Made by a program: the position numbers and the translations under genes. Of a stretch of DNA of 64,000 nt, positions 4,781 to 9,587 are shown piece after piece. Origin of the DNA: Flavobacteriaceae bacterium UBA7302 (GTDB lineage Bacteria > Bacteroidota > Bacteroidia > Flavobacteriales > Flavobacteriaceae); assembly GCA_002471825.1 (NCBI GenBank), contig DKQS01000011.1, forward strand, positions 42,712 to 106,711, read 5' to 3'. Numbering within the stretch: the first letter of the stretch is position 1; each line of letters begins with the position of its first letter. The notes below the pieces were generated by a model. It ran no database searches. It was not told where the DNA came from and was given only the letters and a program-made list of their open reading frames with translations.

Positions 4781-5701
4781 ATGGTGGGTAAAAAGATCTT
4801 CGGAATTCTCTTCTTCTTATTGATCACGTTAAATGCACATGGTTATAAGAGAGTCCTTTACGTGGATAATTTTAGCAGTATTGTTGGCAACACCACCAGC
4901 GAAAACAAATTACTTTCCTTTGCAAAACGCTATGGCTTCAACTGCCTTCTTCTTTATGAATTAAACAAGGTGGATAAAAAGTATCCTTTAAAAGACAAAA
5001 GCACTAATGGAATTCTTGCAAAATTTATCTCCAAAGCTAAATCCACCTATAATATTGATGAAATTGGAGCCATTGGAGAAGCTTCTGAGTTTTTTATAGA
5101 TGTCATTCACCCCTATAACGAATCGAGAAACAACGTTTACGAGAAGTTCAACGTATATAACTTAGAATACGAGTATTGGTCTAAAAAGGCCTCTGGAGAG
5201 GATGGCTACTATTGCGAAAACTATTTGAAATACGACAATTATCAGTGCACCAGAGAGGGATCATTTAAGCACTTCATTGACGACTTAAAAGCCATGAAAT
5301 CTTTGGTAAGCCAAAAATCCTATAAAATTAAAATCGAGGCATTTTTAGGATGGTTTAAGGAAAATGAGATCAGAGAGATTAGCAAATACTCAGATCGCGT
5401 CATTTTGCAGAGCTATGACAAAAATCCGCGATTGTGTTATTCAAAAACCAAAAAGAGATTGAGTTTCGTTACCAGTCTCTCCTCAAAAATAGAAACCTCT
5501 GTCCTATTTTCATCAACCATGGAAAATATGGGGAAATGGCTCAAATACGATACGCTTGATAAAACCGAAAACATTTTCATGAGTGAAATGAAGGCAAAAA
5601 ATAGCGAGTTGGCCAAAAAATTAAAAATAGACAGTTTTGGTTACCATACTTATTCGTATTTAGAGAAATCATTAAGCTATTATGCCTATTCCCAGAATTA
5701 A
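4781..5701 (+). CDS. Secreted TIM-barrel / GH18-like hypothetical protein, paralog 1
   Basis: Signal peptide, LYVDNF, FNVYNLEYEYW and GYYCENYL. TACATTTG at 4751-4758 places the start at the ATG at 4781. Confidence 0.7.
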   Translation: MVGKKIFGILFFLLITLNAHGYKRVLYVDNFSSIVGNTTSENKLLSFAKRYGFNCLLLYELNKVDKKYPLKDKSTNGILAKFISKAKSTYNIDEIGAIGEASEFFIDVIHPYNESRNNVYEKFNVYNLEYEYWSKKASGEDGYYCENYLKYDNYQCTREGSFKHFIDDLKAMKSLVSQKSYKIKIEAFLGWFKENEIREISKYSDRVILQSYDKNPRLCYSKTKKRLSFVTSLSSKIETSVLFSSTMENMGKWLKYDTLDKTENIFMSEMKAKNSELAKKLKIDSFGYHTYSYLEKSLSYYAYSQN

Positions 5702-6024
5702 GTTTCAGGGTAAAATTTAATCGTTTTTTCGTCTGAGAATCACCAACTTGACGTTTTCCGGGAGTGCCAATTTTTGGCCATGCAAAAAGTAGGTTGTAAA
5801 ACCATCAAATCCTTCTAAAATTTACTTTCTAATTATCAGTTCATTACCCGTTTTTTATCCCCAAAAATGGGTATAAAAATCCCTAAAAATAGGTAGAAAA
5901 AAAGTTCACCATTTTACGGTATTGTGGGAATAGAACTTGTTTTCTAACTTAGAGTAGAGATTAAAATAAACCCCTAATCTTTTTAATAAAAACACATATT
6001 CAACAACTCCTAAAACCCCTAGTC

Positions 6025-6954
6025 ATGAAAAAGTTTTTAATTTTTATACTTATCTTATTATTAGCCATTCCATTGGTTGCTAACGATAGAAAGTTATACG
6101 TAGATAATTTCAAAAATGTTGTCGGAAACATTGAAGAAGAACACAAGCTCTTGTCATTTGCACAAACCTTAAATATCGAAGAATTGATTCTTTACGATTT
6201 AGATAAGATTCATCGTGTAAAGGACCTTACTAAAAGAAATACCAATGATGTTTTAGCCAGATTCATTAAAAAGGCAAAAACAATATACGACATGAAGCGA
6301 ATTACCGCTTCTGGTGAAAGTGCCAATTTCTTTATTGAAGTCATTCATAAATACAATAAATCTAGAACAGATTTAAGAGAACGATTTGATGTTTACAATC
6401 TAGAATTCGAATATTGGAACTCTTCCTCTACTTATGGAAACTATTATTGTGAAAATTATTTGAGAAAAAACGGTATTCCTTGTACAAAAGCCGGTGCTTT
6501 TAATTATTTCAAAGAATCGTTACTAGTATTACGATTGTTGTCCAAAGAATTGGAAAAGCCAACATTAGTACAAGCTTACATCGCCAAGTTCACCCCAGAA
6601 GAAGTGCGTAAAATTGAACCTTATGTAGATGTATTATTAGTGACTTGTTACGAAAGATCATTGACACGATTGAAATCTACAGCCATCAAAAATGTTGAGA
6701 ATTTAAGAAGATTGAAAAGCAATAATACCGAAATCTCAATTTTGATGTCAAGTGAACCAATATTTATGGGCGGATTCTTTAAGTTCAATTCATTGGCTTC
6801 AACAGAAGATAAAGTAGGAAACCATGTAAACAAACATGCAACCGTAAACGTGAACAACTTGAGTTACACTTATTACAACTACACAACATTAGCCAAGTCA
6901 TACGAGTACTTGTACTACATGAGAACAGGAAAGCGTTACGCTTACACAAAATAG
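6025..6954 (+). CDS. Secreted TIM-barrel / GH18-like hypothetical protein, paralog 2
   Basis: Signal peptide, LYVDNF, FDVYNLEFEYW, YYCENYL and SSEPIFMGG. Confidence 0.7.
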   Translation: MKKFLIFILILLLAIPLVANDRKLYVDNFKNVVGNIEEEHKLLSFAQTLNIEELILYDLDKIHRVKDLTKRNTNDVLARFIKKAKTIYDMKRITASGESANFFIEVIHKYNKSRTDLRERFDVYNLEFEYWNSSSTYGNYYCENYLRKNGIPCTKAGAFNYFKESLLVLRLLSKELEKPTLVQAYIAKFTPEEVRKIEPYVDVLLVTCYERSLTRLKSTAIKNVENLRRLKSNNTEISILMSSEPIFMGGFFKFNSLASTEDKVGNHVNKHATVNVNNLSYTYYNYTTLAKSYEYLYYMRTGKRYAYTK

Positions 6955-6976
6955 GATAATGTGTTTAAAGTGAGAT

Positions 6977-7084
6977 AAGTTGGTTTTGAATTCACTATTT
7001 GAATGAATTTAAGCAAAAGGACAGACGTAGATTAAAACCCTTATGATTGTATAAATATTGATCCCTAAAATTCAAAACCAACTT
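6977..7084 (+). repeat. Long hairpin with perfect 16-bp terminal inverted repeat
   Basis: AAGTTGGTTTTGAATT (6977-6992) and AATTCAAAACCAACTT (7069-7084). Confidence 0.8.
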
Positions 7085-7128
7085 TCTTTTTTGATCACAA
7101 AGTCAAAAAAACAACCAACAAAAAGTTA

Positions 7129-7157
7129 AAAGCTGAGTTAATTCTCAGCTTTTTTTA
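7129..7157 (+). terminator. Intrinsic terminator
   Basis: AAAAGCTGAG-ttaatt-CTCAGCTTTTTTT. Confidence 0.8.
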
Positions 7158-7440
7158 TGTCAAAAATCTGCCGTTTTTAGGAATTTTATGATTGAAAAAA
7201 CGCTGAGAATTGATCCAAAATCACCAAAAATTATATTCGAATTTGATTTTTTTTTTAATTTTTTTTGCCGCGATACCGAATTTATGAAAGCACCCCATTT
7301 TACAGGGGAAATGAAAATATTTTGAAATTGAATATTTCTCTAAAAGGCTCGCTTTTAACCCATTAAAAGGAGGCCTTATTTTTTTTATTCGTTTAATTTT
7401 CTATAATTTTGACTCGTAATTTATAATAATCCCCCTAATC

Positions 7441-8412
7441 ATGAAAAGGACAATCCCCCAGATCCTAGTCATAGCTGTTATTGTTATTTTCCAAATTCAA
7501 CAGCTGTCAGCACAACGAATTTTATACGTAGATCAATTTTATCAGATTCTCGGTGATGAAGATAAAGAAGAGAACCTATTGAATTTTACCAAAGAAAATG
7601 GGTTTGATAAGATTATACTTTACGATCTACACAAGATCAACCGAGACTTTCCTTTAGCAGATGTTCGTAAAAACGGGATTCTTGCCAATTTCATTTCAAA
7701 CGCGAAACTGAAGTACGGAATCAAAGAAGTGAGTGGCTCTGGTGAAAACGGTGAGTTTTTTATCAATGCCATCGATGCTTACAATCGTTCTAGAACCAAA
7801 GCATCAGAAAAATTTGATGCTTACAACCTCGAGTACGAGTACTGGAAGAAGGAAGACTCTTCTTACGGCGGATACTATTGCGAGAACTACCTGGATAAAT
7901 TCGGAAGAAAATGCAACCGGCAGGAATCCTTTGAGTTCTACATCAATTCATTGGCTACCATGAAAAAATTGGCCAGTCAGAACAAGCACAAGGTGAAAAT
8001 TGAAGCCTATGTGGGGAAGTTCACCAAATCTGAAGTAGCCAGAATATCAAAATATGTAGATCGCTTGCTGGTACATGTTTATGTAAATCATCCCAAAAAA
8101 GGATTTTTCTATGCCAATAAGAGATTGAAATACCTATCAGAGTTAAAGAAAAAACCCAAAGTTTCTATCATCTATTCGTCTGAAATCCTATTCATGGGAG
8201 GATGGTTTAAATATAACTCCTTGAAAAAAGCAGAGAGTATTTTTGTAAAAACCATGAAGAACGAAAACCAAAGTTTGATGAAACAGATCAACTTTACCAA
8301 TTTCACCTACTACAATTACAACTACTTGTCAAAGTCGATTGACTTCTATGCAACAGCTAGTGCTAATAGCAACCAATCTGATGACAATACTATTGTTAGT
8401 GGTTTGAAATAA
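7441..8412 (+). CDS. Secreted TIM-barrel / GH18-like hypothetical protein, paralog 3
   Basis: Signal peptide, LYVDQF, FDAYNLEYEYW, GYYCENYL and SSEILFMGG. TAATTTTG promoter element at 7404-7411. Confidence 0.7.
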   Translation: MKRTIPQILVIAVIVIFQIQQLSAQRILYVDQFYQILGDEDKEENLLNFTKENGFDKIILYDLHKINRDFPLADVRKNGILANFISNAKLKYGIKEVSGSGENGEFFINAIDAYNRSRTKASEKFDAYNLEYEYWKKEDSSYGGYYCENYLDKFGRKCNRQESFEFYINSLATMKKLASQNKHKVKIEAYVGKFTKSEVARISKYVDRLLVHVYVNHPKKGFFYANKRLKYLSELKKKPKVSIIYSSEILFMGGWFKYNSLKKAESIFVKTMKNENQSLMKQINFTNFTYYNYNYLSKSIDFYATASANSNQSDDNTIVSGLK

Positions 8413-8458
8413 AACGAATCACAAGAATTAAACTAAAGATAAAAATTAATAACAATAC

Positions 8459-8571
8459 AAAATCTACATGTTGAGGTTAATGCACATCCCCCATTTACCC
8501 TGAATTGGAAATTACAAAAACCGAGCAGTAGGTAAGCCCCTAAATTACCTATCTCCTCAACATTAGATTTT
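8459..8571 (+). ncRNA. Structured element copy 1 (candidate sRNA or 3'-UTR element)
   Basis: Ends pair (AAAATCTAcATGTTGAGG / CCTCAACATTAGATTTT). Inner 8-bp hairpin has loop GCCCCTAAA. Homologous to copy 2. Confidence 0.55.
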
Positions 8572-8688
8572 TATAAACCGTAAAAATTGAAATAAATATA
8601 GATAATACTATTTGTGTAAGAAGTAAAGCTACAAAACCCCCTAAAACAAGCTGAGTCCTTTGAGATTCTCAATATTAAAGTGACTTCC

Positions 8689-8802
8689 AAATCTAATTGT
8701 TGAGGTTAATGCGAACCCCTTTACCCTTTATTATAAATTACACAAATATTCACAGCAGTAGGTATCCCCCTAAAAAGTGCCTATCGCCTCAACATTAGAT
8801 TT
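8689..8802 (+). ncRNA. Structured element copy 2 (candidate sRNA)
   Basis: Same architecture as copy 1; inner hairpin loop CCCCCTAAAAA; stem differences are G-U compatible. Confidence 0.55.
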
Positions 8803-8862
8803 TAGTTAAAATTTTGCAAAACAGCGTGTTAGACTTTAATTTTTGGACATTTTTTCGTAATT

Positions 8863-8891
8863 TGTAACAAAACCTCCTAATCTTCAGTCTT
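8863..8891 (+). promoter_or_regulatory. Putative ECF-type promoter TGTAAC-N17-AGTCTT
   Basis: Same spacing as TGTAAC-N17-CGTCTA at 17083-17111. Confidence 0.4.
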
Positions 8892-8994
8892 TTTAATACA
8901 ACCCACCTCTAAACCAAATTTCTTGGATCGAAAGCATACAGCTTTTGTAATCACCAGAAATTAGATTTTATGTTTAACCAAAATACCATTAAAG

Positions 8995-9150
8995 ATGAAG
9001 AAATTTTTATTGCAAAAATTAGCTCAGTTAATCGATAGGCTTCCCCAAGGAGAAGAGAGAAAAGAAGCACTAAAAGATTGGTTGGAACTAAAGCTTTCCG
9101 AGGCAAACAGCTCTCTTTTAACCCTTATGAAGAATAAATATCAGTTCTAA
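8995..9150 (+). CDS. Small 51-aa hypothetical protein (not in ORF track)
   Basis: MKKFLLQKLAQLIDRLPQGEERKEALKDWLELKLSEANSSLLTLMKNKYQF*; A-rich start context; fills an otherwise empty gap. Confidence 0.65.
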   Translation: MKKFLLQKLAQLIDRLPQGEERKEALKDWLELKLSEANSSLLTLMKNKYQF

Positions 9151-9176
9151 TATAATGGATGGAAGCACCTACGACG

Positions 9177-9587
9177 TTAACCTTCGAACGAGACAAAATT
9201 ACGAGGTGTCTCGTAAAGGGTGATTTTTATATCTAAGTGGTCAGCAATAACCTTTCGGAGTTTGTTGTAGATAACCACACAAATATTCTCTGCTGTAGGA
9301 ATCAAATCCTTAAATTCTTCTACTTCCACATTCAAATTCTTGTGGTCGAAAGGTTCCTCCACCTCTTGTTTTATCAACTCCTTTAATTTTCCTAAATCAT
9401 ATACATACCCCGTTTCCTGGTCTATTTCACCAGTCAACGATACGATTAATTCGTAATTGTGCCCGTGATAATGAGGATTACTGCATTTACTGAAAACATC
9501 AAAGTTTTTGTCGTCACTCCAATCCTTTCTATAAATTCTGTGGGCCGCATTAAAATGGGCTTTTCGATGTACGGTAACTCTAGGCAT
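9177..9587 (-). CDS. 6-pyruvoyl-tetrahydropterin synthase / QueD family protein
   Basis: FNAAHR, CSNPHYHGHNY, DHKNLN, PTAENI and LYETPRN motifs. Confidence 0.9.
   Translation of the reverse strand: MPRVTVHRKAHFNAAHRIYRKDWSDDKNFDVFSKCSNPHYHGHNYELIVSLTGEIDQETGYVYDLGKLKELIKQEVEEPFDHKNLNVEVEEFKDLIPTAENICVVIYNKLRKVIADHLDIKITLYETPRNFVSFEG

Follow-up and report, generated by a model that had tools for sequence, protein, structure and literature searches.

Genomic setting

We analyzed a stretch of 64,000 nucleotides (nt), called the window here, from Flavobacteriaceae bacterium UBA7302 (assembly GCA_002471825.1, contig DKQS01000011.1, positions 42,712 to 106,711 of the forward strand), and focused on short runs of cytosine (C-tracts) that cluster around the start codons of a small family of paralogous genes. 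The host is a marine Polaribacter, and the nearest assembly shares 95% protein identity with it. The genes, termed p1, p2, and p3, are three tandem paralogs of ~310 amino acids (aa), each with a signal peptide and without a Pfam match, and their family is mostly restricted to Flavobacteriaceae and other Bacteroidota. The predicted structure of p3 is a (beta/alpha)8 barrel (pLDDT confidence score, 93), for which only generic TIM-barrel matches were found among known structures, the top one being the glycoside-hydrolase-like Cwp19 (TM similarity score, 0.5). Related loci used for comparison carry L numbers; L001 is the nearest relative of the window, with 87% identical DNA at the locus. An earlier note, made from the sequence alone, had drawn attention to the pentamer CCCTA at this locus and had proposed that a protein binds it at the translation starts while structured RNAs downstream titrate that protein. 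The features of the locus are collected in Table 1.

Table 1. Genes, C-tracts, and predicted RNA and promoter features at the paralog locus (UTR, untranslated region; ORF, open reading frame)
Feature	Position	Strand	Description
p1	4781..5701	+	306 aa; signal peptide; without a C-tract leader; from ORF and homology
C-tract AACCCCTAATC	5969..5979	+	50 nt upstream of p2; module recurs at 8865-8901; 100% identical in L001
p2 leader, double tract CTCCTAAAACCCCTAGTC	6007..6024	+	Abuts the ATG at 6025; predicted unpaired (probability at least 0.9); identical in L001
p2	6025..6954	+	309 aa; signal peptide; few RNA contigs
Element C	6977..7084	+	16-bp perfect closing stem around ~76 nt with ACCCTTA and TCCCTAA, then T-run; in the p2 3' UTR
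Canonical intrinsic terminator	7128..7156	+	After p2 and element C; an RNA contig of run X4 ends at 7134
Terminator-like hairpin	7344..7377	+	CCCA loop, then U8; -13.3 kcal/mol; upstream of the proximal p3 promoter; stem kept with changes in L001
-7 box TAATTTTG	7404..7411	+	Exact TAnnTTTG match; boxes at the same position in orthologues, e.g., TATGTTTG in L003
p3 leader tract CCCCCTAATC	7431..7440	+	Ends 5 nt before the ATG; predicted unpaired; C-tract(s) kept in orthologues
p3 start-codon hairpin	7441..7472	+	Outer AUGA/UCAU, inner AGGAC/GUCCU, loop CCCCC at 7455-7459; -4.9 kcal/mol
p3	7441..8412	+	323-aa secreted TIM-barrel protein; top-represented gene in several metatranscriptomes
Element A	8460..8570	+	17-bp closing stem; C-tracts at 8488, 8498, and 8537; inner hairpin 8528-8552 with loop GCCCCUAAA; then U5
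Spacer tract AACCCCCTAAAAC	8635..8647	+	Part of the 230-nt tandem unit; in every L001 unit
Element B	8689..8802	+	Second unit copy; inner hairpin 8758-8784 with loop UCCCCCUAAAAAG
Variant AACCTCCTAATC	8871..8882	+	~115 nt upstream of the 51-aa ORF (8995-9150)

C-tracts in the noncoding DNA of the locus

The eight plus-strand copies of CCCTA listed in the earlier note (5881, 5972, 6017, 7063, 7433, 8538, 8639, and 8768) are all present, and its complement TAGGG is indeed absent from the intergenic segments 5702-6024, 6955-7440, and 8413-8994. Its other readings of the letters were likewise confirmed: two copies abut start codons, as AACCCCTAGTC-ATG in p2 (ATG at 6025) and CCCCCTAATC-ATG in p3 (ATG at 7441); variants occur at 6007 (CTCCTAA) and 8873 (CCTCCTAA); and the copies at 8538 and 8768 fall in the loops of predicted hairpins (8528-8552, -11.2 kcal/mol, and 8758-8784, -9.7 kcal/mol). 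The pentamer is not enriched across the window (54 copies observed versus 67.7 expected); it is clustered, with 8 of the window's 10 intergenic plus-strand copies lying within the 1,391 nt of noncoding DNA at the locus. The same 1,391 nt hold 18 tracts of at least three and 10 of at least four C residues, against 6.2 ± 2.3 and 1.1 ± 1.0 in shuffled sequences (0 of 5,000 shuffles reached the observed values), and only five tracts of at least three and one of at least four G residues. The remaining intergenic DNA of the window (4,314 nt) holds 19 C-tracts and 19 G-tracts of three or more, and two C-tracts of four or more. Every tract at the locus is flanked by A or T, and the sequence T/A-A-A usually follows. 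CCCTA is the core of a broader C-tract unit, A/U-CCCC(C)-Y-W-A, in which CCUCC and CUCC variants are tolerated.

The motif-bearing intergenic blocks are 99 to 100% identical between the window and L001, whereas coding DNA differs by ~13%. The copy at 5881 is not kept even in L001, which reads CACTAG there.

CCCTA is also strand-skewed over the whole window (44:10, and 36:10 outside the locus), where it is the second most skewed 5-mer, and the skew tracks absolute strand rather than gene orientation. Because of this window-wide skew, strand specificity alone is weaker evidence for a function at the locus. The skew may reflect a replication-strand polar oligomer, similar to FtsK-orienting polar sequences (KOPS) or Chi, or a mutational skew. 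Genes on the minus strand carry nine CCCTA copies on the plus strand versus one on their own sense strand (Fisher's exact test, p = 2e-4), the heptamer CCCTATT is skewed 9:2 in the window, and the syntenic loci of other Polaribacter (L002 to L008) show a CCCTA skew of 51:16.

C-tract leaders and the start-codon hairpin

TAnnTTTG is the consensus of the Bacteroidota -7 promoter box. As an exact box lies at 7404-7411 and metatranscriptome contigs (assembled and unstranded, as is all RNA evidence used here) span the motif, the p3 tract lies in the 5' UTR. The earlier note had placed both start-abutting copies in 5' UTRs; its placement stands for p3, while upstream of p2 no exact -7 box was found. 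The 50 nt upstream of p1 hold no CCC.

The p3 orthologues of other Polaribacter and metagenomes (57 to 79% identity) have leaders that are otherwise unalignable, and nearly all of them keep one or two C-tracts within the last ~25 nt before the ATG, downstream of a TAnnTTTG-type box (e.g., aaCCCCtaaaatCCCCaagtATG and atCCCttaaatCCCCttaggtATG). Older paralog subfamilies, at 40 to 50% identity, often have one tract at the same position. In all family members with such a last tract, the distance to the AUG is 4 to 9 nt, and the spacing between two upstream tracts is 7 to 10 nt. A tract of four C residues ending 4 to 9 nt before the ATG was found in 18 of 72 family genes versus 0 of 210 other genes from the same loci and the window, the control genes being crude longest-ORF calls. 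The upstream tracts were predicted by folding to be unpaired (probability at least 0.9), and there is hardly any G around the tracts between -8 and +20.

In p3 and its orthologues, the pattern continues into the coding sequence. A C invariably closes the codon preceding Pro6 and gives rise to a third tract at +13 to +20 (TTCCCTAAA, ACCCCTATG, and ATCCCCCAG), and the GG at +8/+9 is maintained by either an AGG (Arg) or a TGG (Trp) codon. A hairpin at or just after the AUG that displays this C-tract in its loop was predicted for 13 of 17 p3 orthologues versus 4 of 210 control genes; because the stems fall in two registers that defeat gapless alignment, the hairpins were counted as per-sequence folds. 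The stems vary and yet stay complementary (AGGAC/GUCCU, AGGAU/AUCCU, GGAA/UUCC, and GGAAAUU/AAUUUCU), the residues that they encode change along with them (TIPQIL versus KFPKFL), and several lineages add an outer AUGA/UCAU pairing. Together, these observations establish a cis-acting, strand-specific element that acts as RNA at the translation-initiation region.

Structured RNAs and repeat arrays

Further C-tracts lie in structured elements downstream of p2 and p3. A 230-nt unit is repeated in tandem as elements A and B; L001 has three such units, and L002 and L094 have one. In each copy, a closing stem of 17 bp encloses two unpaired tracts and an inner hairpin whose loop is of the CCCCUAAA type. 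On the plus strand both fold more stably than shuffled sequences (z = -5.2 for A and -3.9 for B), and the minus strand is weaker (z = -2.35). In one L001 copy (copy a), a G-C pair of the inner stem is replaced by A-U, a compensatory change, and the loop in L002 and L094 is GGCCCACUACA instead of CCCCUAAA, with the C-tract still kept. Elements A and B occur only in a narrow subclade (the window, L001, and L002/L094). Element C (-27.3 kcal/mol, z = -4.0) is nearly identical in L001 and resembles A and B in architecture, with no sequence similarity seen between them, although no covariance-model search was made. All three elements have long closing stems followed by U5 to U6, with 76 to 80 nt in the loop; the terminator scan reported only 7128-7153, with no canonical intrinsic terminator after p3.

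The earlier note had proposed that the downstream structured RNAs titrate a protein. RNA contigs run from p3 into element A, one of them ending at 8600 just past its U-run, so that element A is at least partly a 3' UTR and terminator-like structure of p3, and nothing in the contigs marks A or B as an independent transcript. No -7 box was found upstream of A or B.

Elements A and B were also considered as a dispersed repeat resembling miniature inverted-repeat transposable elements or repetitive extragenic palindromes. This was rejected, as a gapped pattern run over 185,579 species genomes found the element only at this locus, in the one related assembly, the other matches being chance hits in unrelated phyla. 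The whole window has no Rfam match at the gathering score; weak sub-threshold matches in 5600-9200 (PyrG-leader, Phe-leader, and STnc430) correspond to terminator-like hairpins only, and the PyrG-leader identity of the hairpin at 7344-7377 was rejected at 24 bits against a gathering score of 65.

A second array adjoins p3 in another species. In L006 (5364-6704; identical to L028), p1 and p3 are separated by an array of 285 nt x 4.8 in tandem (87% matches), and each of its units is a mini-gene, with a promoter, AACCCCCTAATCCCCTAGTT-ATG, a C-loop hairpin, a ~76-codon 5' fragment of p3, and a terminator-like hairpin; the intact L006 copy of p3 has lost the loop tract (CCAUA). Two independent motif-bearing arrays thus adjoin p3, one downstream (230 nt x 2 to 3, in the window and L001) and one upstream (285 nt x 4.8, in L006).

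Two other sequences recur in the 230-nt units. A 13-nt palindrome, TTGAGATTCTCAA (6-1-6), is found at 8660-8672 and in each spacer of the unit, including the L001 units, and could be a DNA-binding site. The 5' arms of the A and B inner hairpins (8527-8535 and 8757-8765) carry an invariant GCAGUAGGUA that resembles GUAGGAUA, the sole motif shown to be bound in vitro by RbpB, the one characterized RRM protein of Bacteroides (bioRxiv 10.1101/2021.04.27.441718); the resemblance of GUAGGUAA in A and B to the RbpB motif is a lead only.

Neighboring genes

The genes around the paralogs are housekeeping genes (KdsB, a HAD hydrolase, QueD, a NUDIX protein, and a cyclophilin). Between p3 and queD lies an ORF (8995-9150) for a 51-aa helical protein with the pattern MKK.LLQKLAQ.ID.LP.G..RKEA.KDW..LKLS, which is conserved in L001, L002, and L007. 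The module at 8855-8901, ~115 nt upstream of this ORF, is paralogous to the regions upstream of p2 and p3.

Representation in metatranscriptomes

Among the genes in the first 20 kb, p3 has by far the highest representation in metatranscriptome runs X4 and X6, at 10 to 100 times its paralogs; in X4, p3 contigs reach depths of 440 to 670 versus ~5 for p1 and p2. It is not the top gene in run X5. These data suggest that the expression of the p3 family is strong and condition dependent.

The region upstream of p3 (7268-7440) seems to be transcribed at least as strongly as the p3 coding sequence (depth, 627 versus 440). The segment 7247-7440, including the hairpin at 7344-7377, may be a small RNA of its own or a long leader subject to attenuation, and in one X4 contig 7266 is joined directly to 7462, with the 195 nt in between missing. 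Contig starts at 7247-7268 were considered as transcription starts and rejected; a T-run and chimeric, T-rich loose ends mark them as assembly breaks.

Occurrence beyond the locus

A scan of one genome per species with the pattern AACCCCTWA-N1-5-CCCC-N4-8-ATGAA, which itself imposes the spacing, returned at least 120 matches, of which ~56 are from Bacteroidota, 12 from Verrucomicrobiota, and 4 from Bacillota. The Bacteroidota matches listed include Prevotella, Bacteroides, Lutibacter, Tenacibaculum, Flavobacterium, Chitinophagaceae, Cytophagales, and Sphingobacteriales. An ORF of 100 aa or more starts at the ATG in 41 of the 56 Bacteroidota, 11 of the 12 Verrucomicrobiota, and 17 of the 52 remaining matches listed. 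A rough estimate from base composition predicts only a handful of chance matches at gene starts in all Bacteroidota genomes of the collection. Among the matches listed, no gene with a double-tract leader belongs to the p family. As the double-tract leader heads unrelated genes in Bacteroidota, Verrucomicrobiota, and phage contigs, the motif is not specific to the locus, and the idea in the earlier note of a circuit encoded in one locus had to be given up.

These unrelated leaders hold two to eight tracts. Hydrophobic N termini are more frequent among the motif genes (30/41) than among controls starting with MK or MN (51/99; p = 0.02), as are C-tracts in the loop of a post-AUG hairpin (7/41 versus 11/284; p = 0.003). 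An exact -7 box is nearby in only 7 of 44 pattern matches. Single tracts near the starts of other genes occur at chance level (5/284), which indicates that the leader marks a small gene class and is not a general rule, and which suits a small regulon better than a signal of general use; none of the housekeeping genes of the window has a C-tract leader.

One recurrent member of this class encodes a lipoprotein of 163 to 167 aa with a CAP (CAP/SCP-like) domain and has the double-tract leader in both Tenacibaculum (L164, L185, and L264) and Lutibacter (L154, L188, and L208). In Tenacibaculum its start is followed by a hairpin with a CCCCUCA or CCCCUAA loop, and the stem of this post-AUG hairpin has undergone a compensatory change from U-A to C-G. 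Two tandem repeats of ~125 nt follow the CAP gene in L164 and L185, and in L188 eight C-tracts lie within 120 nt upstream of it.

In viral contigs, 53 of 80 pattern matches open ORFs of at least 60 aa, and several phage protein families keep the tracts while the flanks diverge. A G-tract control pattern was discarded for viral contigs as not neutral, because GGGG-N4-8-ATG is itself a Shine-Dalgarno (SD) sequence. PHROGs annotates the phage motif genes as unknown functions or amidoligase, which is uninformative about expression class.

Individual leaders show further arrangements. In L198 (Arcicella), the C-tract leader CTAACCCCCAACCCCTAA is preceded at a distance of 15 nt by a complementary G-rich sequence, TTAGGGGTTGGGGGTTAG, a perfect inverted repeat of 18 nt located ~70 nt upstream of the motif gene, which could sequester the tracts in a hairpin. 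Conserved ORFs of 32 to 33 aa with a lipoprotein-like ending (e.g., MKKKETWKFILQTLLSVLSAIATAFGVASC..) have a double-tract leader in L202 and L246 (both "Ca. Bacteroides intestinavium") and in L224 (Bacteroidaceae). The leaders of L245, L193, L231, and L247 consist of three to five tandem CCCCTAA, and their template strand resembles a telomere-type G-quadruplex repeat.

How the tracts may be read

Of the earlier proposal that a protein binds C-rich RNA at the translation starts, the RNA-level half has held up: the element is strand specific, conserved, absent from 210 neighboring genes, unpaired or looped, and accompanied by covarying stems. For the other half, we tentatively favor a putative trans-acting protein that binds C-rich single-stranded RNA; our inferences are the protein nature of the reader, the direction of its effect, and titration by A and B, if any. 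A protein reader is favored because the motif is repeated, displayed in loops, recurrent in 3' UTRs and arrays, the mark of a small gene class, and contrary to the A-rich rule for efficient initiation in Flavobacterium. In Flavobacterium johnsoniae, a C at -6 cuts reporter translation by ~70% (PMC6847099), and for this reason a C-tract leader is unlikely to be intrinsically strong.

With a protein reader, the C-tracts would build a specialized translation-initiation region on the p2 and p3 mRNAs, where a leader of ~25 nt would offer one or two tracts, the last ending 4 to 9 nt before the AUG, and p3 would add a looped tract after the AUG. The reader would be a binder of C-rich single-stranded RNA, with KH-type proteins as the obvious class, and might be a regulator that acts on its own or a factor that works with the 30S subunit. 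It would set the initiation efficiency of the mRNA and probably its stability as well. The tracts in the spacers and in the loops of the 3' UTR elements (C for p2; A and B for p3) would be extra sites on the same transcript, which might raise local occupancy or buffer the factor.

The proposal that targets and sponge are combined fares less well. The number of units varies and two arrays adjoin p3, which fits a sponge, whereas A and B are limited to a subclade, the loop in L002 is GGCCCACUACA, and most orthologues have no 3' RNA. As most species and orthologues are without any 3' element, titration cannot be essential; a sponge role of A and B is possible.

Several observations weigh against a protein reader of this kind. 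We identified no candidate reader protein, and a Pfam scan of the nearest neighbors alone found no RNA-binding protein gene among them. RbpB was considered and rejected as the reader, as in vitro it recognized GUAGGAUA but did not bind a C/U-rich probe. Most p3 orthologues lack a downstream structured RNA and are directly followed by the convergent queD. The p2 gene, despite its leader motif, has few RNA contigs; the contigs themselves are unstranded, and the spacing among the scan matches is that of the search pattern. Moreover, the tight, SD-like spacing and the use of the leader by diverse phage genes and two phyla point more naturally to the ribosome.

Accordingly, a close rival to the protein reader is intrinsic ribosome docking without SD pairing, which we regard as possible, though on balance unlikely. 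Here the 30S subunit itself would read the tracts, through pairing with a G-rich part of 16S rRNA, through bS1, or through platform proteins, and would thereby place the start codon; the 3' elements would be unrelated stabilizers or terminators. The last tract lies 4 to 9 nt from the AUG even in paralog subfamilies at 40 to 50% identity, and because the leader spans five Bacteroidota orders, Verrucomicrobiota (11/12 at real ORFs among the matches listed), and phages (53/80 in phage contigs), an ancient shared partner fits best. Two reports describe Bacteroidota ribosomes working without SD pairing (PMC7797042 and PMC13000453), and C-rich ribosome-binding sites (RBSs) have been selected in vitro with Escherichia coli ribosomes (PMC3310771). 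However, those selected sites showed no position dependence and were inefficient in vivo, and A-6C was deleterious in F. johnsoniae reporters (PMC6847099). Docking also sits poorly with the rarity of the motif elsewhere (0/210 and 5/284) and its absence from the housekeeping genes of the window, and it leaves the tracts in 3' UTR loops and spacers and the conserved AUG-pairing hairpin unexplained. The window holds no rRNA gene, and the UAGGGG of helix 45 in E. coli 16S rRNA, which presumably is not kept in Bacteroidia, is a lead only.

The remaining explanations are far less probable. A G-rich small RNA (sRNA) with a UUAGGGG-like seed could pair with the tracts around the start to repress or activate the mRNAs, in which case A, B, and the arrays would be sRNA sponges. 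Unpaired or looped tracts flanking the AUG are indeed the usual geometry of sRNA targets; GibS and FopS of Bacteroides act on translation-initiation regions, and the predicted FopS targets are enriched in outer membrane proteins (PMC7366714 and PMC11697453); and the mirror arrangement, in which C-rich sRNA loops act on G-rich mRNA, is known (sX13 and 6C). We nevertheless consider such an sRNA improbable, as the locus holds no G-rich complement (0 TAGGG in its intergenic DNA, and a single TAGGGG on the plus strand of the window, inside a gene), no Rfam sRNA matched, and conservation across orders and phyla, which this motif shows, is rare for sRNAs.

Rho prefers C-rich, G-poor RNA and needs ~70 to 80 nt of free RNA. 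A rut-like site at which Rho loads, ends p3 transcription, and couples leader read-through to translation would suit the excess of C over G in all three spacers (19.4% versus 11.7% in 8413-8994) and the lack of a canonical intrinsic terminator after p3. It is nonetheless rather improbable, given that the tracts sit in stable hairpin loops (z = -3.9 to -5.2), the leaders of ~25 nt are far below what Rho needs, a fixed AUG distance and a hairpin inside the coding sequence are foreign to rut sites, and the contig end after element A and its U-run resembles intrinsic termination.

We give a similarly small chance to a signal at the DNA level, in which a transcription or sigma factor would read the tracts on the duplex as operator half-sites or as an alternative promoter or initial-transcribed region. 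The tracts are direct repeats ~10 to 30 bp from the predicted -7 boxes, and phages could copy a promoter as easily as an RNA element. Yet an inter-tract spacing that varies from 7 to 10 nt poorly fits a rigid DNA-binding dimer, the orientation is strictly strand specific, an exact -7 box is near only 7/44 pattern matches, and copies recur in covarying hairpins within the coding sequence and in 3' UTR loops with compensatory changes.

Finally, the absence of any function, with the motif copies being put down to shared ancestry after genes and spacers were duplicated in tandem, plus the genome-wide CCCTA skew, is already disfavored and very improbable: the p2 and p3 leaders and the modules at 5962-5995 and 8865-8901 are paralogous, A and B are tandem copies of one unit, and the skew is 36:10 outside the locus, but the tracts are conserved across species with unalignable leaders and absent from 210 neighbors, the stems covary, the architecture recurs in unrelated families and phages, and the motif-bearing intergenic blocks are 99 to 100% identical to those of L001 against a coding difference of ~13%.

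On a broader scale, one might speculate, as something doubtful but worth stating, that Bacteroidota and perhaps Verrucomicrobiota and phages have a second system of start-site recognition or control, in which CCCCUAA repeats at an SD-like distance are read either by a conserved protein (as a Csr-like global regulon whose decoy arrays are linked in cis) or by the platform of the 30S subunit itself. In the latter version, the tract might mimic the anti-SD tail (ACCUCCU) for a pocket formed by bS21, bS18, and bS6.

Significance and comparison with known systems

To our knowledge, Bacteroidota lack Hfq, ProQ, and CsrA, and their post-transcriptional regulators are largely unknown. How they choose and tune start codons without SD pairing is an open question that a short, mutable motif makes testable. 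The motif described here combines a fixed AUG geometry, conservation across orders, copies in phages, and enrichment on genes for envelope or secreted proteins. It may provide a handle for engineering expression in Bacteroidota and would improve the annotation of start sites in marine Flavobacteriia, where p3 ranks with the best-represented transcripts of some samples. We found no description of a natural C-rich leader class in Bacteroidetes or Bacteroidota in the literature searched, which is not proof of its absence.

The system that the locus most readily recalls is Csr/Rsm, in which CsrA acts on GGA leaders and CsrB or RsmZ serves as a sponge. In both, a repeated motif lies in single-stranded RNA or hairpin loops around the ribosome-binding region, and further copies occur in the loops of a nearby repetitive structured RNA, here with one, two, or three units among related strains. 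However, the motif is CCCCYWA or CCCC(C)YWA and not the GGA that defines Csr/Rsm, no CsrA-like gene was seen among the nearest neighbors by Pfam, and the repeat RNA lies in the 3' UTR of its own target without an evident promoter of its own and is missing from most species.

As structured RNAs of ~110 nt with C-tracts in loops or unpaired regions, elements A and B also resemble sX13 of Xanthomonas (PMC3771888), the mycobacterial 6C RNA (PMC6486639), and staphylococcal RsaE. Those RNAs pair with G-rich mRNA sites, often the SD, whereas the start regions here are C-rich and without a G-tract partner. As elements and start regions carry C-tracts of the same sense, A and B cannot pair with the mRNA starts, and, unlike those sRNAs, they seem to be joined to the p3 mRNA.

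The leaders themselves are similar to the C-rich RBSs of Barendt et al. (2012; PMC3310771), which lie just upstream of the start in place of an SD sequence and for which natural examples in phages were noted. The position of the selected RBSs made no difference and their performance in E. coli cells was poor, whereas the leaders described here are natural, keep a fixed distance to the AUG, are built from a defined CCCCUAA unit, and occur in a phylum with a sequestered anti-SD. With the Kozak-like, A-rich initiation regions of Bacteroidia (Baez et al., 2019; PMC6847099), they share the lack of an SD sequence, the scarcity of G, and an A that is common at -3, e.g., CCCCCUAAUC-AUG. They depart from the rule derived there, which asks for A at -6 and at -11 to -15 and under which C at -6 lowered output, and are a distinct minority class.

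Compared with the SD sequence, the tracts (CCCC or CCUCC) have the same sense as the CCUCC of the anti-SD instead of being its purine-rich complement. The spacing is nevertheless SD-like, with the last tract 4 to 9 nt before the ATG (18/72 family genes and 0/210 controls), and the C-tract motif looks like an undescribed signal at the translation start in a phylum without SD use.

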